64,000 nucleotides of DNA from Gammaproteobacteria bacterium (GCA_963664945.1 OY761822.1:406080-470079), one strand, 5' to 3'. Counted from the first letter of the stretch, positions 5,169 to 20,766 are shown. Notes: a model not told the origin generated them from the letters alone. A program made the numbers and translations.

Positions 5169-5594
5169 ATGCTGAAGAAAATTGTCGGATACTACCTGGT
5201 CCTGGTGGCGGTGCTGGTCGGCGCACATGCCGTCGTCGAGCCGCTTTACCATGTCTCCACCGAAGCCCGGCCGTACAGTGCGAACTGGGACATTCTGAAC
5301 GCGATGATGATCGTGGCGCTCGTCCTCGGCATCGTCTACGGCTATCTCCGCAAGAGCGCCGCCGACAGCGACGGGGGCGGGGTGACCCGCGAATACCTTG
5401 CCGCGAACACGCTTTTCTACGGCTTCCTGTTCGTGAGCATCCTGTTCTTCTGGAACTGGTTCAATCTCCTGAGCCCGGAATTCACGGCCATTGGGGAGGA
5501 GACGGTTTCGCTGGTGTGGATCGTCATCGACGCGCTGCTGCCGTTGGTCACCGGCGCCATGGGAATCCATCTCGCGCGAAGCGGCGGCGACTGA
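5169..5594 (+). CDS. small integral membrane protein, function unknown
   Basis: ATG 5169 is preceded by a GGGAGGA Shine-Dalgarno sequence. Four hydrophobic segments. No recognisable family. Confidence 0.6.
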   Translation: MLKKIVGYYLVLVAVLVGAHAVVEPLYHVSTEARPYSANWDILNAMMIVALVLGIVYGYLRKSAADSDGGGVTREYLAANTLFYGFLFVSILFFWNWFNLLSPEFTAIGEETVSLVWIVIDALLPLVTGAMGIHLARSGGD

Positions 5595-5688
5595 CGGGCT
5601 TGCATGGAAAACCCTTTTCCGTGTGCGTCAACGCACCGCTCGCCGGGGCGATAACCGCTCCGCACCGGAACCGGCGGCGCGGCCCAGG

Positions 5689-7521
5689 CTATTCGACAGT
5701 GACCGACTTGGCGAGGTTGCGGGGACGATCCGGATCGGTGCCCTTCAGCAGCGCCACGTGATACGCCAGGAGCTGCAGGGGCACCGCGTACAGAAGGGGT
5801 TCCTGAATCGGTTGCACGTGGGCGGGCATGCGCAGAATCCGCACGCCGTCATCGGCGCCGAACTTAACGGCAGGATCGGCAAATACGTACAGCCTGCCGC
5901 CGCGCGCCCGGACTTCCTGAAGGTTCGACTGCAGCTTTGCCAGCAACTCGTTGTTGGGCGCCACGGCCACCACCGGCATGTCGTCGTCGACCAGCGCCAG
6001 CGGACCGTGCTTGAGTTCACCGGCCGCATAGGCCTCCGCGTGGATGTAGGAGAGTTCCTTGAGCTTCAATGCCCCTTCCATGGCCACCGGATTGAGCGCC
6101 CCGCGGCCCAGGAAAAGGGCATGGTGCTTGTCGGCGAAATCGCGCGCCAGTTCCGCGATGGCGCCCTCCAGCAACAGGCTCTGCTCCACCAGGCCGGGCA
6201 TTTCCGCCAGGTGGTTCACAAACAGGCGCTCGTTCTCGGCAGGTGCGCCGCCGTGCCGGGCCAAGGCAATGGTCAGCATTAGCAGCGCCGCCAGTTGCGA
6301 CGTGAAGGCCTTGGTGGAAGCCACGCCGATCTCCACGCCCGCTCGGGTGAGGAGCACCAGGTCCGCCTCGCGGGTCAGTGAGCTCTCCGCCACGTTGCAT
6401 ATCGCGAGCGTCGCGAGATAGCCCAGGTCCTTCGCGGCTCGCAACGCCGCCAGCGTGTCGGCGGTCTCGCCGGACTGGGATATGGCGACGAAGAGCGTAT
6501 TCTCCGGCACCACGGGAGACCGGTAGCGATACTCGCTGGCGATATCCACCGCACAGGGCAGCCGCGCGACCTCTTCCAACTGGTACCGCGCGACGAGTCC
6601 GGCATGGTAGCTGGTCCCGCAGGCGACGATGTGCACGCCCGCGGTACGCGCAAGGATCGATTGCGCGGCCGTGCCGAAGGCTGCATCGGAGACCGCGCCG
6701 TCTTCGATACGGTTCTCCATGGCCCGGGCCAGTGCCGCCGGCTGTTCGTGGATCTCCTTTTCCATGAAGTGGCGGTGATGCCCCAGGTCCACCGCGTCGG
6801 CGGTCTGCTCGCTTTGCCGAACCGGGCGTTGGGCCTCTCGTCCGGCCGCATCGAAAATCGTCACCGCCTCTCGCGTGACGACGGCGACATCCCCCTCCTC
6901 CAGAAACTGGAACCGTCGCGTAACCGGCACCAGCGCGGCCACGTCCGACGCCACCAGGTTGCCGTTGCCGCCCAGGCCCACGACCACCGGCGTGCCGACG
7001 CGGGCGGCGATCAGCGCGTCCGGTTGTTCCGCGCTCAGAACCACCATAGAGGCGTGCCCGCCATCCAGTTCGGGGACCGTGAGGCTCACGGCAAGCCGCA
7101 GGTCGCCGGTGCGCGCAAGGTGATAGTGCACGCGGTGTGCGATCACCTCGGTGTCGGTGTCGGAGCGGAATTCGTACCCTTCGGACTCCAACAGCTCGCG
7201 CAGCGCCGCATGATTCTCGATGATGCCGTTGTGTACGACGGCGACTCCGCCGGATGTATGGGGATGGGCGTTGGCTTCGCTGGGCCTGCCGTGGGTCGCC
7301 CAGCGGGTATGGGCAATGCCCGAGGAGCCGCTCAAGGGGGCCCCGTTCAGTGCGTCCCGCAGCGTCTGGACCTTGCCCAGCCGCCTCAGGCGCCGCAGCT
7401 TGCCGCCACTGGCCAGTGCCACGCCCGCGGAGTCGTAGCCGCGGTACTCCAGACGCCGCAACCCTTCCATCAGGACCGGGGTCACGTCCCGGTCCGCGAC
7501 CATTCCGACGATGCCGCACAT
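5689..7521 (-). CDS. glmS: glutamine--fructose-6-phosphate aminotransferase
   Basis: The canonical N-terminus MCGIVG starts at codon 80 of the 689-aa track ORF (ATG at 7521). It ends ...KSVTVE. The upstream 79 codons are a GC-rich open-frame artefact. Confidence 0.95.
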   Translation of the reverse strand: MCGIVGMVADRDVTPVLMEGLRRLEYRGYDSAGVALASGGKLRRLRRLGKVQTLRDALNGAPLSGSSGIAHTRWATHGRPSEANAHPHTSGGVAVVHNGIIENHAALRELLESEGYEFRSDTDTEVIAHRVHYHLARTGDLRLAVSLTVPELDGGHASMVVLSAEQPDALIAARVGTPVVVGLGGNGNLVASDVAALVPVTRRFQFLEEGDVAVVTREAVTIFDAAGREAQRPVRQSEQTADAVDLGHHRHFMEKEIHEQPAALARAMENRIEDGAVSDAAFGTAAQSILARTAGVHIVACGTSYHAGLVARYQLEEVARLPCAVDIASEYRYRSPVVPENTLFVAISQSGETADTLAALRAAKDLGYLATLAICNVAESSLTREADLVLLTRAGVEIGVASTKAFTSQLAALLMLTIALARHGGAPAENERLFVNHLAEMPGLVEQSLLLEGAIAELARDFADKHHALFLGRGALNPVAMEGALKLKELSYIHAEAYAAGELKHGPLALVDDDMPVVAVAPNNELLAKLQSNLQEVRARGGRLYVFADPAVKFGADDGVRILRMPAHVQPIQEPLLYAVPLQLLAYHVALLKGTDPDRPRNLAKSVTVE

Positions 7522-7535
7522 CTCTAGCGCTCCAG

Positions 7536-8930
7536 TTACGACTCGCGCTTGGTCGGCCGCTTCCAGCCCTTGACCGAACTCTGGCGCTTCCGGGCCACTG
7601 CCAGGGTTTCGGCAGGAACATCCCGGGTAATTGTAGAGCCCGCCGCGATGGTCGCGCCCTCGCCGACCTGCAGCGGTGCGACCAGCATTGAACCGGAACC
7701 CACAAAGACCCGGTCGCCGATCTCCGTGCGGTGCTTGTTGGCGCCGTCGTAGTTGCACGTCACGGCACCGGCGCCGATGTTGCTGTCACGGCCAATGTTC
7801 GTATCGCCGACATAGCTCAAATGGTTCACCTTTACGCCCGAGGCCAGCCGGCCCGCCTTGACCTCGACGAAGTTGCCCACCTTGACGCGCTCGTCGAACT
7901 CGGTCCCGGGCCGCAGCCGTGCGAAGGGGCCGATCTCGCAGTCACTGCCGGCGATGACCCCATCAATGACGCAGTTGGCGTGCACAGTGCAATCGTCGCC
8001 AAGCCAACTTTCCGAAATTACGGCGTTCGGGCCGATGCGGACCCGATCCCCGAGCGTGACATTTCCGCTGAAAACTGCTCCCACGTCGATGAACACGTCG
8101 CGGCCCACGGCCAACCGGCCGCGCAGATCGAACCTGGAGGGGTCGGCAAGCGTGACCCCCCGGTCCAGCAGTTCCCTGGCGTAACGCCGCTGCATGGCTC
8201 GCTCCGCTTGAGCCAGTTGCCGACGGTCGTTTACGCCCATTGCCTCATCCGGACCGGCCACCGGAACACCGCACACCGGCACATCGTCTGCCACCGCCAT
8301 GGCGATCACGTCGGTCAGGTAGAGTTCACCCTGGCTGTTGGCGCTGTCCAGTCGGCCCAGCCAGCGGCGGGCGGCCTCGGCGGGCAGCACCATGACGCCC
8401 GTGTTGATTTCCTTGACGGCAAGCTCCTCCGGGCTGGCGTCGGAATCCTCGACCACCGCCGCGACAGACCCCACCTCGTCGCGCAAAACGCGACCGTAAC
8501 CGGATGGCTCGTCGACCGTCGCGGTCAGCAGCCCCAGCCCTTGGCCATCGGTCTGCTCGATCAGGCGCTCAAGGCTGGTGGGGGAAATCAGCGGCATGTC
8601 GCCGCACAGAACAAGAACCCGATTCCCATCCGGGATACGTGGAAGCGCCTGAGCAAGTGCGTGTCCTGTGCCGAGTTGTTCGGTCTGATGGGTCCAGATC
8701 AGGTCCCGACCTGCGAAAGCGTTGCGCACGGCTCCCCCACCGTGCCCATAGACGATGTTGAGTGTGTCCGGACCAAGTGCCTCCGCTGCATCCAGGGCGT
8801 GGGACAGTATCGGTCGCCCGGCGAGGGATTGCAGCACCTTCGGACGCGAGGAATTCATGCGCCGCCCCTGACCGGCGGCCAACACCACAACAGTCACGGG
8901 GCTGGGTGGATCGCGTTCCGGAGCATTCAT
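7536..8930 (-). CDS. glmU: bifunctional UDP-N-acetylglucosamine pyrophosphorylase / GlcN-1-P acetyltransferase
   Basis: VVVLAAGQGRRMNS nucleotidyltransferase motif and C-terminal hexapeptide repeats. ATG 8930 chosen. The frame stays open upstream to 9131. Confidence 0.93.
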   Translation of the reverse strand: MNAPERDPPSPVTVVVLAAGQGRRMNSSRPKVLQSLAGRPILSHALDAAEALGPDTLNIVYGHGGGAVRNAFAGRDLIWTHQTEQLGTGHALAQALPRIPDGNRVLVLCGDMPLISPTSLERLIEQTDGQGLGLLTATVDEPSGYGRVLRDEVGSVAAVVEDSDASPEELAVKEINTGVMVLPAEAARRWLGRLDSANSQGELYLTDVIAMAVADDVPVCGVPVAGPDEAMGVNDRRQLAQAERAMQRRYARELLDRGVTLADPSRFDLRGRLAVGRDVFIDVGAVFSGNVTLGDRVRIGPNAVISESWLGDDCTVHANCVIDGVIAGSDCEIGPFARLRPGTEFDERVKVGNFVEVKAGRLASGVKVNHLSYVGDTNIGRDSNIGAGAVTCNYDGANKHRTEIGDRVFVGSGSMLVAPLQVGEGATIAAGSTITRDVPAETLAVARKRQSSVKGWKRPTKRES

Positions 8931-9295
8931 GCCATCTCTGCTGGATGGTTGTACAACATCGGTCCGACACAACGGGACCGAACGCTTCCATTTTTTTCTC
9001 AGATCATCCAGTTCGTCTTCTTTGCAGATGACCTTTTCGTACTTTAACAAATCCGGATGCATTTGCTCGTGTGAGAATCCTGTGGGAGTGCGCCTTCGTC
9101 TGTTTACAACCCAAGAAGCTCTGGGTCGCATATCCCAAGATAGCGCGCCACGAAGTTGGCCGGAACTCCCAGGAGCCCTCCCAGCGCACTGTAAGTGCAG
9201 CGGACCTTGACGGCGTTCAGGCAGTCAAGAACCTCATTGGTAACACACTGTCTGTCGTTCTCAGTCACAAGAATTTGTCTTCCGGTCAACCTCAA
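8931..9295 (-). pseudogene. possible frameshifted ATL/MGMT-like (alkyltransferase-like DNA-binding domain) ORF
   Basis: Frame A (9295..9104) reads ...CTYSALGGLLGVPANFVARYLGICDPE.. then stops. Frame B (from 9131) reads ..ASWVVNRRRRTPTGFS..HPDLLKYEKV. Joined, they resemble ..TYG..A...G.P.AAR.VG.....PWHRVVN of YbaZ/Ogt-type proteins. Recognised from memory only. Confidence 0.3.
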
Positions 9296-10184
9296 TGAGA
9301 CGGGGCCTCATCATCGCGTAGCCACGCCCGCTCAACTCCAGATTTCGCGCGAGCTTCTTGGCGAGCACTTCGAGACGGCTCCGAAAATAAGCTCGTTCAG
9401 ATTCATTTGTGAATGCGGTCGGCGCAGCCAGTATCACGTCCGCGTAATACTTGTTTTCACCGTTGATGCCGCTTTGGCGGATTGGTGGACAGGTCATTAT
9501 GTATGCTCCGCTCAAATTCGCCCGCTGAAGCTCGTCGAAACGCCGACCGACCGGATTGAACGGGTCCAGGTTCAGGGCAAACAGCAGGACCGCAGAGCAT
9601 TGCGCGATCTTCCCCATCATCGGGAGAATGCTTTCGGCCCGGTTGTAGCCATTTCCGTTGGGCTTCAGGAAATCGGCATAGGGATCGATCATGATCAGAT
9701 CCTTGCCCGATGTCTCATGTTGAATGACTTCAAGGGCGTCATATGCGTCATATGCGTCGTATGCATCCGAACCTGCAAGCGCAGGGAACTCATCTTCGAG
9801 CATCTTCACTCCCGAGTTTCGAAGCCTGTTCCGGCACCCTTCGTCGCGGTCGGAAGCGACAACGGACAGCCGACCGCCAAACCGATCTCCCATCTTCTGC
9901 GCCAACTTCCGCGCCAACATTCCGCTGCCATAATATCTGCCGAAACTAACGTCGGGCTGGGCCTCATGAAGAGCGCATCCGGACAAACCGTTGACGCGCT
10001 TGATTATTTCTTCACCTACGCCGGTACGGCAAGGCTCTCCCCCGAACAAATCGAGAAAACGAATCGGCTTAGCGGAGCGGAAAATCAGCGACGCGCGAAG
10101 AAATTCGGCAAGGACGCCGTGCTTTAGAAGGTCTCCGGCGTTCCCCATATCGTAGCGAAGAGATGTCTGCCCGGAATTGCCCAT
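9261..10184 (-). CDS. RlmJ-like (DUF519/RsmJ-fold) putative N6-adenine methyltransferase
   Basis: YDMGNAGDLLKHGVL, PIRFLDLFGG, YYGSGMLA and LIMIDPYADF are collinear with E. coli RlmJ motifs (HAGN.ADVLKH, LYLDTHAG, YYPGSP, ILIDPPYE). Start uncertain (10184 or 10148). The track ORF extends to 10502. Confidence 0.6.
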   Translation of the reverse strand: MGNSGQTSLRYDMGNAGDLLKHGVLAEFLRASLIFRSAKPIRFLDLFGGEPCRTGVGEEIIKRVNGLSGCALHEAQPDVSFGRYYGSGMLARKLAQKMGDRFGGRLSVVASDRDEGCRNRLRNSGVKMLEDEFPALAGSDAYDAYDAYDALEVIQHETSGKDLIMIDPYADFLKPNGNGYNRAESILPMMGKIAQCSAVLLFALNLDPFNPVGRRFDELQRANLSGAYIMTCPPIRQSGINGENKYYADVILAAPTAFTNESERAYFRSRLEVLAKKLARNLELSGRGYAMMRPRLIEVDRKTNSCD

Positions 10185-10594
10185 TCGGTAAAGCGCCGCT
10201 GTTCGGAGGCCCGGCGAGACTGCGCTCGACGGTGGATGTCCACGTGCAATTGTAACGCGTGACCGCCCGCACCCGGGGGATACGATGCGGCGGCGAGTGT
10301 TCCTGCCCGACGGGCGTGGACACTCATTCTGGGAGAGCAGGATCACTTGGGAAATCATGGGGACACGCCGCCCCGAAGTCCCTGAAAGAAAATAAATCAA
10401 TGACTTGCACATTTTCCATACAAGGTCTCCCGACAGACCGCCGTGTCGAGTGAGTCTCCCCAAGGTGTTCAAAAGACCGAACCCAAGGCTATCCGGCCCC
10501 ATTTCTCGGCGAATCGCCTCGATAGAAAGGCTGACCTGCCACCGCTTTTTCGTGGACCATCGCGGGCTCTGCTATCATTTTGAATGGATGTCCA

Positions 10595-10921
10595 ATGAGC
10601 GACGCCATGGCCGCGGCGAAGTGAATCGACGACCTGAAAGAGGCGGGCCTCAGTTACGATCAGGCCCGCATTCTGGTCGAATTCATTGTCCGCTCGCAGG
10701 AACACCTCGCGACCAAGGAAGACATCAAAGCGCTGGAAAACAGAATCGGCGGCCTGGAGGTCAATATCGCTGCCCAAGGCGTCAGGATTGACTCTCTGGC
10801 GGTCGAAATGAAGGCTTTCGAAGCAAAATTCACCCGCCAACTGTATGTGTTCGGATTCGGCATCGTCGGATCGATGATCGCCATCATGGGCCTGTTCCTA
10901 TCCTTGCAGATGCCCGGCTGA
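10595..10921 (+). pseudogene. DUF1640-like coiled-coil/TM protein with in-frame TGA at codon 10
   Basis: Own translation: MSDAMAAAK*IDDLKEAGLSYDQARILVEF..LATKEDIKALE.. followed by a C-terminal TM segment. TGA at 10622..10624. Absent from the ORF track because no Met follows the stop. Confidence 0.5.
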
Positions 10922-10962
10922 ATCCAGAGGGCACGATTCACCGACCGGTTCACGCAGGGATA

Positions 10963-11364
10963 CTACAGCTTCCTCGCGTTAGGCAGCGCGGCCATCTTTC
11001 GATCCAGCGTGAAAACCTCCAGGTCCGCGCGATCGTAGCCGTTCGCGATCAGCCGGTCGAACAGACCCGGCTTGCCGGTTGCCATAAGTGCTTGAATGAC
11101 CGCTCTGCCGTTCAGTGGGCGTACCAGCCCGCTATCCTCCAGGAGCATATACAGGGCGGACTTGGCATCGCCCGTGGAAACGCCATAATGATGCTGGACC
11201 GCGATATAGGTTTCGCCGATCACCTGATTGGATGCGAAAAATTCGTAATCCCGCTCATCCACCAGCGAGGCCAGCTTCGCAACGCATCGTTCGTATTCGG
11301 GTCGCGGATCCCTTGTAAGCAACCTGACCAGGACGGAAGTGTCAATCCCGTAACGCCGGATCAT
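10963..11364 (-). CDS. vapC: PIN-domain toxin (VapC family)
   Basis: MIRRYGIDTSVLVRLL.. is a PIN N-terminal acidic motif. 133 aa. Overlaps the upstream antitoxin gene. Confidence 0.8.
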   Translation of the reverse strand: MIRRYGIDTSVLVRLLTRDPRPEYERCVAKLASLVDERDYEFFASNQVIGETYIAVQHHYGVSTGDAKSALYMLLEDSGLVRPLNGRAVIQALMATGKPGLFDRLIANGYDRADLEVFTLDRKMAALPNARKL

Positions 11365-11584
11365 GCGCTTGCTTCCGAAACTCAGCCAGATCGAACGTGC
11401 CTCGCCCCCGCTTGATCTTGTCGTGCAAAGCGCCTACGCGGGAAAGGTCTACTCGCCGTGGCCGAAGAATGAAGCCTTCATCGCCCTCCACCAGTTCCAG
11501 CCGATCGCCTGGTCCGACGCCCAGCGCGTCAAGCACACGGGCGGGAAACGTAACTTGCCGCTTGGAGGTTATCTTTACAACCAC
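11342..11584 (-). CDS. vapB: AbrB/SpoVT-type antitoxin (VapB)
   Basis: ..KITSKRQVTFPARVLDALGVGPGDRL.. is a swapped-hairpin AbrB motif. GTG 11584 lies 6 nt after AAGGAAG. The TTG 11602 start in the track is less likely. Confidence 0.75.
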   Translation of the reverse strand: MVVKITSKRQVTFPARVLDALGVGPGDRLELVEGDEGFILRPRRVDLSRVGALHDKIKRGRGTFDLAEFRKQAHDPALRD

Positions 11585-11660
11585 GACCTGCTTCCTTACC
11601 AAATTTTAAATTGTTGTAAGGAACCTAGTTGAAACTAAGCGCCCGGTCAACCCGCTCGGT

Positions 11661-11714
11661 GGAATTCATCCGCCGCCCCCGGCCAGCCGCCAGGACCACG
11701 ACGGTGAGCGGCAT
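11661..11714 (-). pseudogene. remnant of a second glmU 5' end (18 codons)
   Basis: Encodes MPLTVVVLAAGRGRRMNS, then diverges and stops. Compare ..PVTVVVLAAGQGRRMNSS of the intact glmU. Both copies share GGAATTCAT at the homology breakpoint (8850 and 11661). Confidence 0.7.
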
Positions 11715-11743
11715 GGCCCGAACACGATCCGAAACGTTGCGCA

Positions 11744-12076
11744 TCAATCGAATTCCAGCCGGGCAGGACCCTTGGACAACCAATCTTCTCCCCCGAAGGC
11801 GACAAGCGCGATATAGAGGCATTGCGCGCTTGTATCCGGCCGAAAAACAATAGTGATCTTGTAATCCCACCCGCCGTGGCGCACCGGCCAGCCTTCGAGC
11901 GAAGCGGACAGGCGAACCCCCGAAAATGGGTTTCCCGCGATGTCTTTCAGCAGGTCGTCGATTTCATCGAGCCGACGCTCTGCCGCGGCAACGTTTCCAT
12001 CTGTGGCCTCCACGATGTGCTCGGCTATCGCGATGATGTCCTGCTCGACCAGCGGATGCCGAACCTGACGCATCAC
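11744..12076 (-). CDS. parE: ParE/RelE-family toxin
   Basis: 110 aa. Size, position (GTGATG overlap with the upstream antitoxin stop) and the ..W.YKI.Y(F)R.. pattern fit ParE. Confidence 0.7.
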   Translation of the reverse strand: MMRQVRHPLVEQDIIAIAEHIVEATDGNVAAAERRLDEIDDLLKDIAGNPFSGVRLSASLEGWPVRHGGWDYKITIVFRPDTSAQCLYIALVAFGGEDWLSKGPARLEFD

Positions 12077-12366
12077 CCCCGCAAAGCTTTGTCTTTCGAC
12101 TCGGCGAGCTTTTGCAGATGGCGCCGAGCGCCCCTGGTCACTTCATCGAGCGCGCCGACGGGTACCCACTGGTCGACAGGCAGGCGCAGGCGGCGTTCAA
12201 CTTCGGCGCCCAGAAGCATCCGCTCCCGTTCGCGGACCGCCTTTGCGCGTGCGAGTTCTCCGGATACCGCCGCGCTGACATTCGCGTATTCGCCCTCTTC
12301 GACCAGTTGCCGCGCAAACGCGAACGCCGATTCGGTGAAGGAGACGCTCTGTTTGTGGACAGCCAT
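12073..12366 (-). CDS. parD: ParD-family (ribbon-helix-helix) antitoxin
   Basis: MAVHKQSVSFTESAFAFARQLVEEGEYANVSAAVSGELAR.. is ParD/COG3609-like. ATG 12366. The longer track ORF runs into atpC. Confidence 0.7.
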   Translation of the reverse strand: MAVHKQSVSFTESAFAFARQLVEEGEYANVSAAVSGELARAKAVRERERMLLGAEVERRLRLPVDQWVPVGALDEVTRGARRHLQKLAESKDKALRG

Positions 12367-12514
12367 GAACGGCTCCCTTCGACTCGGTGCTCTATTGGCG
12401 CACCATAGCGCAGAGGCGCGCTTCCCGCAATCGCCGCCGCTTGCAGCCAAAGCGCCGTTCGAGCGGCAAGCTTCTTGCGCCTGACCGCCGCAATATGCGT
12501 CCCGAACCGTCGCC

Positions 12515-12931
12515 TCAGCGCTTGCCCCTGAGCTTCTCGGCCGCGCGGTATCGGGCTTCGGCCTCGACGAGTTCCCGTTGCGCCTGTTCCAGGCCGATCT
12601 CGCCGTGGCGGCCTTCCAGCGCTTCGCGGGCACGCTCGCGCGCCGCCAGCGCCGCGGCCTCATCGAGATCCTCCGCGCGTGCGGCGCTGTCCGCCAGCAC
12701 CGTCACCAGCCGGGGCTGCACTTCCAGAACGCCGCCGGTCACGAAGAACAGCCGTTCCTCGCCTTCGGGTGGCTGGACGCGCACTTCGCCGGGCTTGAGA
12801 TACGTCAACAAAGGCGCGTGGCGCGGTGCTATCCCGATCTCGCCCAGCGCGCCGGGGGCAAACACCATCCGGGCTTCGCCGGAAAAAATCGCGCCTTCGG
12901 CGCTGACGATCTCGACCTGAATGGTGGCCAT
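12515..12931 (-). CDS. atpC: F0F1 ATP synthase subunit epsilon
   Basis: MATIQVEIVSAEG.IFSG... Last gene of the atp operon. Confidence 0.95.
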   Translation of the reverse strand: MATIQVEIVSAEGAIFSGEARMVFAPGALGEIGIAPRHAPLLTYLKPGEVRVQPPEGEERLFFVTGGVLEVQPRLVTVLADSAARAEDLDEAAALAARERAREALEGRHGEIGLEQAQRELVEAEARYRAAEKLRGKR

Positions 12932-13084
12932 GACAAAGACTCCAATCAGCGCGAACCGTCAAACGGGCCGACACGCACCTGAAATGCCGCGACAATTGCG
13001 TTTCGCACCATCGCCACAATTGCTCTCGACCGCATCGCCATGTCCCCGCAGGCGTCCGCCCAGCTCCTCCGAGTCGCCACGGAC

Positions 13085-14497
<1,413 letters not shown>

Positions 14498-15358
14498 CTA
14501 GACGGCTGCCGCGCCGCCGACGATCTCCGATATCTCCTGGGTGATCGCCGCCTGGCGGGCCTTGTTGTAGACCAGTTGCAGCTGATCGATGAATTTCCCC
14601 GCGTTGTCCGTGGCGGCCTTCATCGCCACCATCCTGGACGCCATCTCGCAGGCCACGTTTTCCACCGCGCCGCGATACACCTGCGCTTCAAGATAACGCT
14701 CCAGCACGTTGTTCAGAAGCTCGGCGGCATCGGGCTCGTAGATGTAGTCCCAGTGGTCCTGCAGTTCTTCGGCGTCCACCGGTTCCACCGGCACCAGCGT
14801 GCTGATGGTCGGCGCCTGGGTCATGGTGTTGACGAAGTCGTTGTAGACCAGGAACAACCGGTCGATCGTCCCGTCCTTGTAGGCGTTCGTCATGGTGGTG
14901 ATCGGGCCGATGAGATCCGCCACCCTGGGCACGTCGCCCAGGTGCGTTGCCGCCGACACGATGTTCGTCTTAAGCCGGCGGAAAAACGCCAGCCCCTTGG
15001 CGCCGAGAATGCACAAGTCGGCTTCAACGCCCTGGCCCTGCCAGCGGCCGATGTCATTGAGCAGCGTGCGGAACAGGTTGACGTTCAGCGATCCGCACAG
15101 GCCCCGGTCGGTGGTGACCACCAGGTAGCCGACCCGCCTGATCGCCCGCGTTTTCAGGTAGGGATTGTGGAAATCGGGACCGGCCTGGGACAGATGGCCG
15201 ATCACGCGGCGAATACTTTCCGCATAAGGCTTGGCGGCGTTCATCCGGTCCTGGGTCTTGCGCAGCTTGGACGCGGCCACCATTTCCATCGCCCGCGTGA
15301 TCTTCTGCGTGTTCTTCACGCTGTTGATCTTGGTCCGGATTTCCTTGCCGACCGCCAT
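14498..15358 (-). CDS. atpG: F0F1 ATP synthase subunit gamma
   Basis: [31 protein letters not shown]... Confidence 0.97.
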
Positions 15359-15416
15359 TCAGTTCTTCCTCGAGACCCGCCTTCGGTTCCTGGTGTCGTG
15401 TCCCACAAGTACGTGA

Positions 15417-16958
15417 CTAATACGCGCCCGACGCCTTGAATTCGTCGAGCAGCGCCTTGAGGCCGGCCCGGATTTCGTCATCGTAGGCGCCGGTACTGTC
15501 GATCTTCGCCATCAGGTCCTCGGCATTGGCCCGGGCGTGGGCGTGCAGTGCCGATTCGAAGGGCACGACATTTTCCACCTCGACATCGTCCAGGTAGCCC
15601 TCGTTCACGGCGTACAGGGCTATCCCCATCTCGGCCACCGACATCGGCGCGTACTGGGGCTGCTTCATCAATTCGGTGACCCGCTGGCCGCGCTCCAGTT
15701 GCCGCCGGGTGGCCTCGTCGAGATCGGAGGCGAACTGCGCAAAGGCGGCCAGCTCGCGATACTGCGCAAGGGACAGGCGGATGCCGCCGCCGAGCTTCTT
15801 GACGATATCGGTCTGGGCCGCGCCGCCCACGCGCGACACCGACAGCCCCGCGTTGATGGCCGGCCGGATGCCGGCGTTGAACAGGTCCGTCTCCAGGAAG
15901 ATCTGCCCGTCGGTGATCGAGATCACGTTGGTGGGCACGAAGGCCGAGACGTCGCCCGCCTGGGTCTCGATGATCGGCAGCGCGGTCAGCGAGCCGGTCC
16001 GGCCCTTGACCTCGCCCCCGGTGAATTCCTCAACGTAGCGCGCGTTGACCCGTGCGGCACGCTCCAGCAGGCGGGAATGCAGGTAGAACACGTCGCCCGG
16101 ATATGCCTCGCGGCCGGGCGGGCGCCGCAACAGCAGCGAGACCTGCCGATACGCCCAGGCCTGCTTGGTCAGGTCGTCGTAAATGATCAGCGCATCCTGG
16201 CCACGGTCGCGGAAGTACTCGCCCATGGCGCAACCCGCGTAGGGCGCGATGTACTGCATGGCCGCCGATTCCGAGGCGGAAGCGGCCACCACGATGGTGT
16301 GCTCCATGGCGCCTTCCTGCTCCAGGCGGTTGACCACATTGGCCACCGTGGAATTCTTCTGGCCGATGGCGACGTAGATGCAGACAATGTCGCCGCCGCG
16401 CTGATTGATGATGGCGTCGATGGCGACCGCGCTCTTGCCGGTCTGGCGGTCGCCGATGATGAGTTCCCGCTGGCCGCGGCCGATGGGCACCATGGAGTCG
16501 ATGGATTTCAATCCGGTCTGGACAGGCTGGGATACCGATTGACGGTCGATCACCCCCGGCGCCACCTTCTCGATGGGCGACGATTCCACGGTATCGATGG
16601 GGCCCTTGCCGTCGATCGGGCTACCCAGCGAGTCCACCACCCGCCCGAGCAGCGCCTCGCCCACCGGCACTTCCAGAATCCGGCCGGTGGTGCGAACCGT
16701 GTCGCCCTCGCGGATGTGCTTGTACTCGCCGAGGATCACGGCGCCGACGGAGTCCTGTTCCAGGTTGAGCGCGAGGCCGAAACTGCCGCCCGGAAACTCG
16801 ATCATCTCACCGTACTGGACATCGGCCAGGCCGTGGATGCGGACGATGCCGTCGGTCAACATGACCACGGTGCCGACATCGCGCGCCTCGGCCCTGGCAT
16901 CGAAGTTCTCGATGCGTTGCTTGATGAGTTCGCTGATTTCCGACGCTTTCAATGCCAT
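15417..16958 (-). CDS. atpA: F0F1 ATP synthase subunit alpha
   Basis: Starts [16 protein letters not shown] (ATG 16958). GDRQTGKS Walker A. Confidence 0.97.
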
Positions 16959-16983
16959 GTGATTTCCTCTTGCCCGCGCCAAG

Positions 16984-17538
16984 TCAGGCGGTCAACGCCC
17001 CGGCGAGTTCGGCCAGCCGGGTCCTGACGGAACCGTCGATCACCTGGCCCTCGGCCTGGATGACGGCGCCGCCGAGTAATTCGGGGTCTTGCTGTAATTC
17101 GAGTTCCACGGCCCTGCCCAGCTTCTGTTCCAGGGCCGAGCTGATTCGGCTGACCACGGCCGGCTCCACGCCGGCGGCGGTGATCAATTGCACCTTGACG
17201 GTATTCTCCGCACGGGCCTTCAGCGCGTCGAACCGCGTGGATATTTCCGGCAGAACCTCGAGCCGGCGATTCTCGGCGAGGAGTCGAAGCAGGTTGCGGC
17301 CGTGCCCGGAATCCAGCGCGTTGCCCTCATCGGCGTCGGCGCAGACCGACAGCAGGAAAGAAACCCGCGCCGCGTTGTCGAGTTCGCGCCTGGCCAGAAA
17401 CGCCCTGGCGTCGGGATTGCCTACCACGCCGGCCACGCCGCGCAAGGCCTCCGACCAGCCGGACAGGCTGTCATTTTCCCTGGCCAGTTCGAAGATCGCG
17501 CGGGCGTACGGCCGCGCCAATGTCCCGGTTTCAGCCAT
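16984..17538 (-). CDS. atpH: F0F1 ATP synthase subunit delta
   Basis: ..[13 protein letters not shown].. is an OSCP/delta signature. Operon position fits. Confidence 0.93.
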
Positions 17539-17565
17539 GGCTACACTTCCGCTCCACGCCCGCCG

Positions 17566-18036
17566 CTAAAGCTCCGCGGCGAGACGGTCGAGCAGCTCAC
17601 GATGCGCCTCGGGGTCGATTTCGCGGGCCAGCACCTTTTCGGCGCCCGCCACCGCGATGACCGCCACCTGGTTGCGCAGTTCGTCGCGCGCCCGGTTGAC
17701 TTCCACGTCGAGCTCCGCTTGGGCGCTTTCGAGCCGCTTGCGCTTCTCATCCTCGCCCTCGGAGCGGGCCTCATCGACGATGCCGGCCGCCCGCGCCGAA
17801 GCCTTGTTGAGGATGTCGCGCGCCTGCTCGCGGGCCGCCGCGATGATGGTCTGCGCCTCCGCTTCGGCGGACTCCAGGTCGCTGCGCCCCTGTTCCGCAG
17901 CGGCGAGGCCGTCGGCGACCCGCTGCTCGCGCTCTTCCATGGCCTGGATGATGAGCGGCCAGATGTAGGTCATGGTGAACCACACCAGCAGGGCGAATAC
18001 CAGCATCTGTACGAACAGTGTGACGTTGATACTCAC
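17566..18036 (-). CDS. atpF: F0F1 ATP synthase subunit b
   Basis: N-terminal TM segment followed by a long charged coiled coil. Operon position fits. Confidence 0.93.
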
Positions 18037-18076
18037 GGTTTACCTCCGGGGACGATGTCGGCTTCGTCCAGATTGA

Positions 18077-19692
<1,616 letters not shown>

Positions 19693-19875
19693 ATGCAGAC
19701 CGTGTGCCCGTAAAATTCCGCTGCATCGGATAAAGAAAAAGCCACACCCGAGGCGTCGCTTCTGGGAGGAATTTCTACTGCCTGAACGCCGCCGGTATCC
19801 TATAGATTTGTCGGCCCGCGATCAAGGCGAGCCGGGCCACTGTCCGGGATGGTCGAGGATGCCCGCCAGGATCGT

Positions 19876-20766
19876 TCAGGACCTTGGGCTGCGCCCCAGT
19901 TGCTCGATAATCCCCTCCAGCTCATCGACACCGTGATAGCGAATGATGACCCGCCCTCCCCTGGCGCGGTGGTCGATCCGGACCGTAGCGCCGAGCCGGT
20001 CGCTCAACCGGGTTTCCAGGCGCCGCACATCCGGGTCCCGGGCTGGCGCTGGCGGCTGCTTCTTCGCGGGCTGCGCCAACCGGTTCACGGCGCGTTCGGT
20101 TTCACGCACGCTCCAGCCCTGCTGAGCGGCGCGCCTGGCCAGGGCCACCAGCGCCTCGGGGTCCTCCAGCGCCAGCAGGGCTCTCGCATGCCCCATGTTC
20201 AGCGACCTCCCCTCGACCATCTCCTTGACCTCGTCGGGCAGTTCCAGCAACCGCATCAGGTTGGTCACGGCCGCTCTTGAACGACCGACCGCGTCCGCGG
20301 CCTCGGCATGGGTCATATCGAATTCGTTCACCAGGCGCCTCAGCGCCCCGGCTTCCTCAAGCGGATTCAGGTCCTCCCGCTGCATGTTCTCGATCAGCCC
20401 GACGGCCACCGCCGCGCGATCGGGCATGTCCCTGACGAGGGCGGGGACCGCGTCGAGACCGGCCATTTGGGCGGCGCGCCAGCGACGCTCCCCGGCGACA
20501 ATTTCGTAACGGGTTTCGGCTCCGCCTTCCAAGGCGTTCAAGGGACGTACGATGATGGGCTGTACCAGGCCCTCGGAGCGGATCGAGTCCGCCAACTCCT
20601 GAAGCGACTCCTGGCGCATGTCCACGCGCGGCTGGTAGCGGCCCCGTTCCAGGAGGTCGACGGGCACTTCGCGAAGACCATCCTGCGCGTCGGGCTGCGA
20701 TGCCACCGGTTCGGCGCCCAGCAGCGCCTCCAGGCCGCGGCCGAGGCTTTTTCGCTTAGGCCGCAT
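19876..20766 (-). CDS. parB: chromosome partitioning protein ParB
   Basis: KRKSLGRGLEALLG N-terminus, the GERRWRAA box and an HTH. Confidence 0.95.
   Translation of the reverse strand: MRPKRKSLGRGLEALLGAEPVASQPDAQDGLREVPVDLLERGRYQPRVDMRQESLQELADSIRSEGLVQPIIVRPLNALEGGAETRYEIVAGERRWRAAQMAGLDAVPALVRDMPDRAAVAVGLIENMQREDLNPLEEAGALRRLVNEFDMTHAEAADAVGRSRAAVTNLMRLLELPDEVKEMVEGRSLNMGHARALLALEDPEALVALARRAAQQGWSVRETERAVNRLAQPAKKQPPAPARDPDVRRLETRLSDRLGATVRIDHRARGGRVIIRYHGVDELEGIIEQLGRSPRS

Follow-up and report, generated by a model that had tools for sequence, protein, structure and literature searches.

We showed that glmU in a 64,000-nt stretch of DNA from a Gammaproteobacteria bacterium (GCA_963664945.1 OY761822.1:406080-470079; hereafter the window) has been split by foreign DNA. 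Its original 5' end persists as a 54-nt stub beside parE, and the present glmU runs into an imported 5' kilobase and an islet that carries the toxin-antitoxin (TA) pair vapBC, an RlmJ-fold methyltransferase-like gene (orfX) and a small coiled-coil gene. Resident DNA was lost together with the insertion, and a later deletion of 1170 nt trimmed the stub. The scar is probably (with a probability of about 0.7) the result of two steps, a homology-anchored import from a congener of the type known as homology-facilitated illegitimate recombination (HFIR) and then a microhomology deletion.

The displaced 5' end of glmU and the extent of the foreign tract

The working glmU is located at 7536-8930 (minus strand; Pfam NTP_transf_3 and Hexapep). 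The initial annotation had noted a diverged duplicate of the first glmU codons at the far border of the islet, and this duplicate is real: glmU codons ~10-27 (8850-8903, minus strand) are paralogous to codons 1-18 of the stub (11661-11714, minus strand). When 8850-8894 was aligned with 11661-11705, 36/45 nt were identical (80%), with a 9-nt identical end, and ATGAATTCC ended both copies. This repeat, D1, was the largest direct repeat within 8700-12600 (71% over 78 nt). The stub starts with ATG at 30 nt downstream of parE, is translated into MPLTVVVLAAGRGRRMNS followed by 11 unrelated codons, and now opens a 29-codon open reading frame (ORF) at 11625-11714. A tblastn comparison of the stub with the glmU start gave an E value of ~1e-6 and 83% identity across 18 aa, and in a whole-genome nucleotide BLAST with the stub the glmU copy was not among the matches. 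Since the nucleotide-only match is weak, the meaning of the stub rests on its context, and its origin was settled by synteny.

Scanning of metagenomes for ParE recovered contig L092, which has the order parD-parE-glmU and whose identity to the window ends exactly at 11659. Over 11659-12430 the two sequences were 97.5% identical, continuously from parD into the stub, and the 19 residues of the stub begin the intact glmU of L092 (19/19 aa), the body of which is only 77% identical to the glmU of the window. The exact L092 ParD was found on 24+ contigs (L093-L102), all reading atp operon-atpC-parDE-glmU-glmS with an intact glmU that likewise begins with these 19 residues; one contig of this set came from the sponge Sarcotragus foetidus (LXNI; PMC5099237). 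The empty site, with atpC, parDE and glmU contiguous, was therefore found in L092-L102, at 94-97.5% identity to the window over the parDE side. Judged from this synteny, 11661-11714 is evidently what remains of the first 5' end of the resident glmU, now displaced, as the initial annotation had proposed. Its remark that the copy now fused to glmU has a lower GC content at third codon positions (GC3) was borne out as a modest difference: GC3 in the duplicated block was 89% in the stub copy and 78% in the present glmU copy, and the 1 kb of glmU that was imported had 73.8%, compared with 79.3% for the resident allele. Exact-protein look-ups of ParE, VapC and VapB of the window, ParE of L092 and the protein P0008 returned no record.

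The direction of the event was read from the flanks. Compared with L093/L094, the window was 95-96% identical over the atp operon, 94-97% over 11659-12931, 91-95% over glmS and 88-94% over the last ~400 nt of glmU; over the first ~1 kb of glmU the identity was 74-82%, no nearer than that of other congeners. Since both outer flanks are L093-like, the foreign tract consists of the 5' kilobase of glmU and the islet, and the polarity of the event is thereby settled. The congeners in GTDB, all at 81-88% from the window, could not polarise the event, and a glmU breakpoint searched for with these congeners alone gave no signal, all being about equally distant; the signal needed the L093 lineage.

With this lineage included, sliding identity, change-point and partition-tree analyses of glmU were performed. 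The two-rate model placed the change point at gene nt 1016-1029 (window ~7902-7915), with a twofold log-likelihood difference (2dlnL) of 104-117, and the divergence from the empty-site lineage fell from 21% before the change point (5') to 7.5% beyond it (3'). In trees of the separate partitions, the stub (in the 446-nt version of contig L103, described below) joined the L093 clade with a support of 1.0, nt 470-1029 of the working glmU joined G001/G013/G015 with 0.96, and the 3' part of glmU joined the L093 clade with 0.99. The whole GlmU was 86% identical to that of G013 and 76.5% to that of L092. The imported part is the 5' ~1.03-1.09 kb, an allele from a congener, and the resident-type part is the 3' ~330-390 nt (7536 to ~7870). 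Between them, the 60 nt at 7843-7902 are identical in the window, L103 and L093; above 7902 (5' in glmU) the window equals L103 and both differ densely from L093, and below 7843 (3' in glmU) the window is near L093. The left homologous crossover is therefore common to the window and L103 and lies inside 7843-7902. The present 5' end of glmU is thus not ancestral and came with the islet, which agrees with the initial annotation, and glmU appears to be a donor/resident chimera with its joint near codon 343-363, in the hexapeptide domain.

The exact ParD of the window was found on one other contig, L103 (3.28 Mb, from a different sample), which is 99.06% identical to window 11659-20366 and 97.9% identical to 5238-11664. 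L103 holds the same islet and 1170 nt more, sited between the two matching blocks. The extra DNA consists of a second coiled-coil gene and a 446-nt resident-type glmU stub (95-96% to L093), the remainder of which is contiguous with the 54 nt of the window; the window is therefore the deleted form. Because L103 was assembled independently, misassembly is ruled out. At the deletion junction (GT, 11659-11660), the left side of L103 reads ...CGCGGT/TGAAGTT, the right side reads ...ATACGT/GGAATTCAT and the window reads ...CGCTCGGTGGAATTCAT, with a microhomology of GT or, imperfectly, GTKGAA. By this comparison, the GGAATTCAT edge is evidently the endpoint of the later 1170-nt deletion and not a crossover core. 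The abrupt stop of homology that had been noticed at GGAATTCAT is true of both copies, but it reflects only the truncation of the stub by the secondary deletion.

L103 still shows the original joint, at which only 2-4 nt separate resident glmU nt ~446 from the stop codon of the second coiled-coil gene. In G001 and G011 the 3' end of this gene faces atpC, and the donor fragment therefore stopped just short of the donor atpC. Of the resident glmU, nt ~447-1030 are missing, and what is left is nt 1-446, in L103, and the part from nt ~1090 onwards. Two candidate motifs were discarded. GGAATTCA, lying in G013 and G015 ~5 nt beyond the end of the vapB-upstream homology, was considered as a microhomology of the joint and dropped, as the pre-deletion sequence in L103 is ...CGCGGT/TGAAGTT. 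GGAATTC as a recurring junction motif was unconvincing and unneeded (17 sites in the window compared with 9.2 expected; 3/100 shuffles reached 17).

A probable two-step origin and its alternatives

The gap between atpC and glmU was read in 12 genomes of the genus, that of the window included, and was empty in 4/12 and filled with different TA cassettes in 8/12. Within the genus, the genomes with an empty gap (~75-160 nt) were G002, G005, G007 and G010; outgroup genera had an empty gap too. A vapBC cassette occupied it in G012, G013 and G015 (81-84% identity to that of the window), and a coiled-coil gene in G011. G001 contained an ATL-like remnant, a C-terminal remnant of an RlmJ-like gene and a coiled-coil gene; G006 contained parDE and a coiled-coil gene fragment; and G016 contained parDE and 6 kb of inserted DNA that includes IS66 and a Panacea-type pair. 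As every part of the islet occupies the same gap in some congener, the cargo is the donor's version of the gap and the islet is not a unit.

We favour the following course of events. In the ancestor of the window genome and L103, the locus would have read atpC-parD-parE-glmU-glmS, as it still does in L092-L102. DNA would then have arrived from a different species of the same genus, as a fragment with the first ~1.03-1.09 kb of the donor glmU, the ATL-like remnant, the RlmJ-fold gene, the coiled-coil gene, vapBC and the second coiled-coil gene. One end of the fragment would have recombined homologously inside glmU (7843-7902). The opposite end, which lay 2-4 nt beyond the second coiled-coil stop codon, would have been joined illegitimately to resident glmU at ~nt 446, with the loss of nt ~447-1030 and with nt 1-446 left as a stub beside parE. 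In a second step, limited to the window lineage, a deletion of 1170 nt between GT(K)GAA microhomologies would have taken out the second coiled-coil gene and shortened the stub to 54 nt, creating the GGAATTCAT edge.

The first step resembles HFIR, which is defined by one homologous end, one illegitimate end, an insertion coupled with a deletion, and 3-10 bp of microhomology (PMC3240628). The process was described from Streptococcus pneumoniae, Acinetobacter baylyi and Pseudomonas stutzeri (review, PMC3240628; original studies, refs 41, 42 and 47 of PMC5361080). In the present locus, one junction lies in shared sequence inside glmU (7843-7902; 2dlnL>100, with trees that switch partner), the other would be a joint between non-homologous sequences, and resident glmU nt ~447-1030 were lost with the insertion. 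Unlike in a transformation assay, the evidence here consists of natural genomes of uncultured sponge-associated bacteria, and from these we infer both how the DNA entered and the enzymology, namely RecA-dependent anchoring of one end and illegitimate joining of the other.

Several observations weigh against this course of events. The donor is unsampled; the best match to the N-terminal 340 aa of GlmU outside the lineage was 81-84% among 5.8 billion proteins, and the donor flank is unsampled as well, so that microhomology at the original joint is unreadable. The non-homologous insert of ~3.5 kb exceeds the laboratory HFIR average of ~1 kb (PMC3240628). L103 and the window differ densely in two patches, 7638-7838 and 9038-9234 (24 and 26 mismatches per 200 nt), and in the first of these the match to the L093 lineage is at some sites in the window and at others in L103; the patches suggest further small recombination tracts, which are outside the favoured model. 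ComEC and DprA were detected, but nearly all control genomes have them too, and they are uninformative about competence. Finally, a Campbell-type crossover of a circularised fragment together with deletion gives the same present structure. As a possible donor, P0002 was rejected, its locus (L104) reading atpC-coiled-coil gene-parDE-glmU.

In such a Campbell-type event, a circularised donor fragment or a non-replicating plasmid, bearing the cargo and the donor glmU from nt 1 to some point X, would have entered by a single homologous crossover near glmU nt ~1030-1090, and successive deletions would have reduced the duplicate to 446 and then 54 nt. The final gene order is the same, the locus is known to have undergone one large secondary deletion at this place, and ligation of linear DNA followed by single-crossover integration is reported to be commoner in E. 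coli than HFIR (PMC3240628). We nevertheless consider this unlikely, since it needs one more unobserved deletion, ending exactly 2-4 nt past the coiled-coil stop and at resident nt 446, and since it predicts a stub of at least 1 kb with a donor-type tail, whereas the stub of L103 is resident-type throughout. The same gene order would also result from the mirror scenario, in which the original locus was glmU-islet-atpC and a segment atp operon-parDE-glmU' was imported from an L093-like donor, anchored in the atp operon and with an illegitimate joint upstream of vapB. This has next to no credibility and can be treated as excluded, because both outer flanks are L093-like (atp operon 95-96%; glmS and the glmU 3' end 88-95%) and only the 5' kilobase of glmU and the islet are divergent, with a sharp change point inside glmU.

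The initial annotation had seen in the islet the signature of an element that integrates into the 5' end of a gene and supplies a replacement end. Such a glmU-targeting integrative element, of the SXT/R391-prfC type, would have had ATGAATTCC as its core, would have supplied a 5' end and a promoter, and would since have lost its integrase. In keeping with this model, each border carries a copy of the 5' end of glmU, in direct orientation and with a 9-nt identical end, and the GC content of the islet is lower (56% compared with 65% for the window). The model is nonetheless very improbable and is contradicted by the ~1-kb tract, the L103 stub, the lack of a recombinase and the non-unit islet. Donor-type sequence runs ~1 kb beyond the supposed core into glmU, where the attachment-site (att) model predicts resident-type sequence; the edge of the 'core' comes from the later 1170-nt deletion, the stub of L103 being 446 nt long; the border block is 80% identical with only the 9-nt identical end, so there is no conserved core; and the exchange was non-reciprocal, with resident nt ~447-1030 lost. 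BLAST detected no further genome copies of the stub sequence, the parts of the islet were found separately in the same gap in congeners and the unit does not recur. No recombinase domain was detected in the islet ORFs with Pfam, and 0/93 PF00589 (tyrosine recombinase) matches of the genome were in the window, the nearest being ~80 kb away; serine recombinases were not searched. Within this scope the absence of a recombinase from the islet, noted initially, holds. Relatives of orfX lay beside glmU in 0/50 loci.

It is also conceivable, as a long shot, that the gap is a dedicated capture site, at which a trans-acting recombination system uses copies of the flanking gene ends as targets for the repeated insertion of TA/conflict cassettes; the 93 tyrosine-recombinase matches of the genome could act in trans under this reading. 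It was left open because both edges of the gap show duplicated gene ends, the glmU 5' stub on one side and, in a sister lineage (L095), a 74-nt atpC 3' repeat on the other.

The insert of this sister lineage, also seen in L098, is 3.35 kb long, directly follows atpC and contains a 192-aa SocA/Panacea-like gene (weak Pfam match, below the cut-off) and a 443-aa gene. On either side of the insert lies a copy of the atpC 3' end, and the two copies form a perfect direct repeat of 74 nt (L095:4339-4412 and L095:7779-7852). G016 (L034:1000-7055) has the same insert at 89-92% together with IS66, and only ~9 nt of the second repeat are kept. The repeat is a remnant similar in kind to the glmU stub and was also counted in favour of the two-step origin; it may have originated by one-sided recombination or from an att-like site. 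Many of the 93 PF00589 matches in the window genome belong to identical trios of neighbouring genes that occur 5-7 times over, reminiscent of recombinase-in-trio elements.

Comparison with known systems and significance

An HFIR-like process was proposed for the orphan immunity genes of type VI secretion system (T6SS) clusters of Vibrio cholerae and for Rhs orphans (PMC5361080). The V. cholerae T6SS immunity arrays and the orphan 3' fragments of Rhs and contact-dependent inhibition (CDI) loci share with the present locus a conserved-gene anchor, a displaced orphan and intermediates in relatives. In contrast to them, the anchoring gene here has an essential housekeeping role, and what was displaced is a 5' stub without function, which shows no immunity-like retention and is being deleted (446 to 54 nt). 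SXT/R391 inserts site-specifically at prfC (PMC2791158), and as in the present case the incoming DNA supplies the 5' end and the upstream region of the target gene; however, SXT has a tyrosine recombinase and nearly identical attP/attB sites, whereas here there is neither a recombinase nor a conserved core, ~1 kb of the gene was replaced and the exchange was non-reciprocal. Accessory islets swapped by flanking homologous recombination are similar in that the gap is variably filled among the genomes of the genus, but such a two-sided exchange leaves no duplicated gene end and the glmU event left one.

On the favoured reading, what appeared to be the att scar of an integrase-less element would be the trace of a homology-anchored import from one species into another of the same genus and of a deletion that came later, and the result is mainly corrective. 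The mechanism is ordinary, and neither a new mechanism nor a new system is implied. Documentation of the scar is good, with an unusually complete natural series in uncultured sponge symbionts from the empty site (L092-L102) through the 446-nt stub (L103) to the 54-nt stub (window). The locus gained vapBC and a methyltransferase-like gene. The series indicates that the essential glmU can turn chimeric and gain a new upstream region while acquiring TA cargo, and that orphan gene ends decay through microhomology deletions. Expression of glmU would now depend on donor-derived upstream sequence, common only to G001, and the old glmU promoter region and start codon would now face vapBC, with the 29-codon ORF reading towards it.

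Genes of the islet and its flanks

On the resident right flank, atpC is at 12515-12931 (minus strand; Pfam ATP-synt_DE), in an atp operon 99% identical to that of L103. The resident parE (11744-12076, minus strand) and parD (12073-12366, minus strand) are found between atpC and glmU also in L092-L104, G006 and G016. Their initial parDE label is tentative: ParE_toxin scored 19.9 bits (Pfam cut-off 23) and ParD (TIGR02606) 18.2 bits (cut-off 46.2), both weak matches below the cut-offs, but the gene sizes, order and overlap fit ParDE.

Within the islet, Pfam confirmed the VapBC label. The vapC gene (10963-11364, minus strand) matched PF01850 (PIN) with 27.5 bits (cut-off 23.6) and vapB (11342-11602, minus strand) matched PF04014 (MazE_antitoxin, MazE/AbrB type) with 43.4 bits (cut-off 24.7); the two ORFs overlap at 11342-11364, and the pair has the features of a type II VapBC system. 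A palindrome, I9, is located at the pair (11592-11623). The small coiled-coil/transmembrane gene (10595-10921, plus strand), labelled 'DUF1640-like', has homologs in the same gap in G001, G011, G006 and L104. It is broken by a TGA at 10622-10624, where the 98%-identical L103 ortholog has TGT (Cys) and G001, G011, G006 and the L103 paralog also have Cys (TGT/TGC). As read from these orthologs, the TGT-to-TGA change is a genome-specific single-base nonsense change or a sequencing error, not recoding. The 'ATL-like' remnant consists of two overlapping frames in the region upstream of the imported glmU (8931-9295, minus strand), and one of these frames continues without a stop into glmU. The region was homologous only to the glmU upstream region of G001 (70.7% over 8700-9491; tblastn). 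The initial 'DUF1640' and 'ATL-like' labels were not confirmed, as Pfam gave no significant match for the coiled-coil gene or for these frames. An Rfam scan of 8000-13000 gave no match, and a promoter/terminator scan of the locus was uninformative. A copy of a ~70-nt dispersed repeat (10354-10425) has at least five other copies in the genome (82-85%) and several in G001; its consensus is approximately GATCATGGCGGCACGCCGCCCCGCAGTCCCTGAAGGAAC..AATCAATG.CTTGCACATGTTCCATACAAG, without an Rfam match.

The gene orfX (9261-10187, minus strand) encodes a 308-aa RlmJ-fold methyltransferase-like protein. A profile search against PDB matched RlmJ (4blu, E=1.1e-4). The AlphaFold2 model had a mean predicted local distance difference test (pLDDT) score of 90.8, and Foldseek aligned it to RlmJ (7p9i, 4blu) with E ~2e-10 and template modelling (TM) scores of 0.64-0.72; the protein is thus predicted to have the RlmJ fold. 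The motif DPPY is characteristic of RlmJ, and orfX has an invariant D168-P169 followed by Y or F (DPY/DPF), the second Pro being missing. No match to orfX was obtained in Pfam, NCBIfam or PADLOC, its sequence falling outside the RlmJ family and DPPY being absent, and PADLOC gave nothing for the islet genes as a whole. The initial RlmJ-like label is therefore supported by profile and fold, but not by a Pfam match. Homologs of orfX are patchily distributed across phyla, and the gene appears to behave like an accessory or mobile gene, judging from this distribution.

Members of the RlmJ-fold family (L042-L091) occur in Thermodesulfobacteriota (60% identity), in Alphaproteobacteria and, as multiple copies in a genome, in Vicinamibacterales. 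At three of the alphaproteobacterial loci, the ORF that comes after the RlmJ-fold gene is related to the 63-aa 'ATL-like' ORF. A metagenome-assembled genome of Pseudomonadales carries an orfX relative of 55% identity (L043:8001-8867) at 3.5 kb from a vapBC pair (L043:12421-13039) that is 57-68% identical to that of the window, a linkage that may be chance or recurrent.

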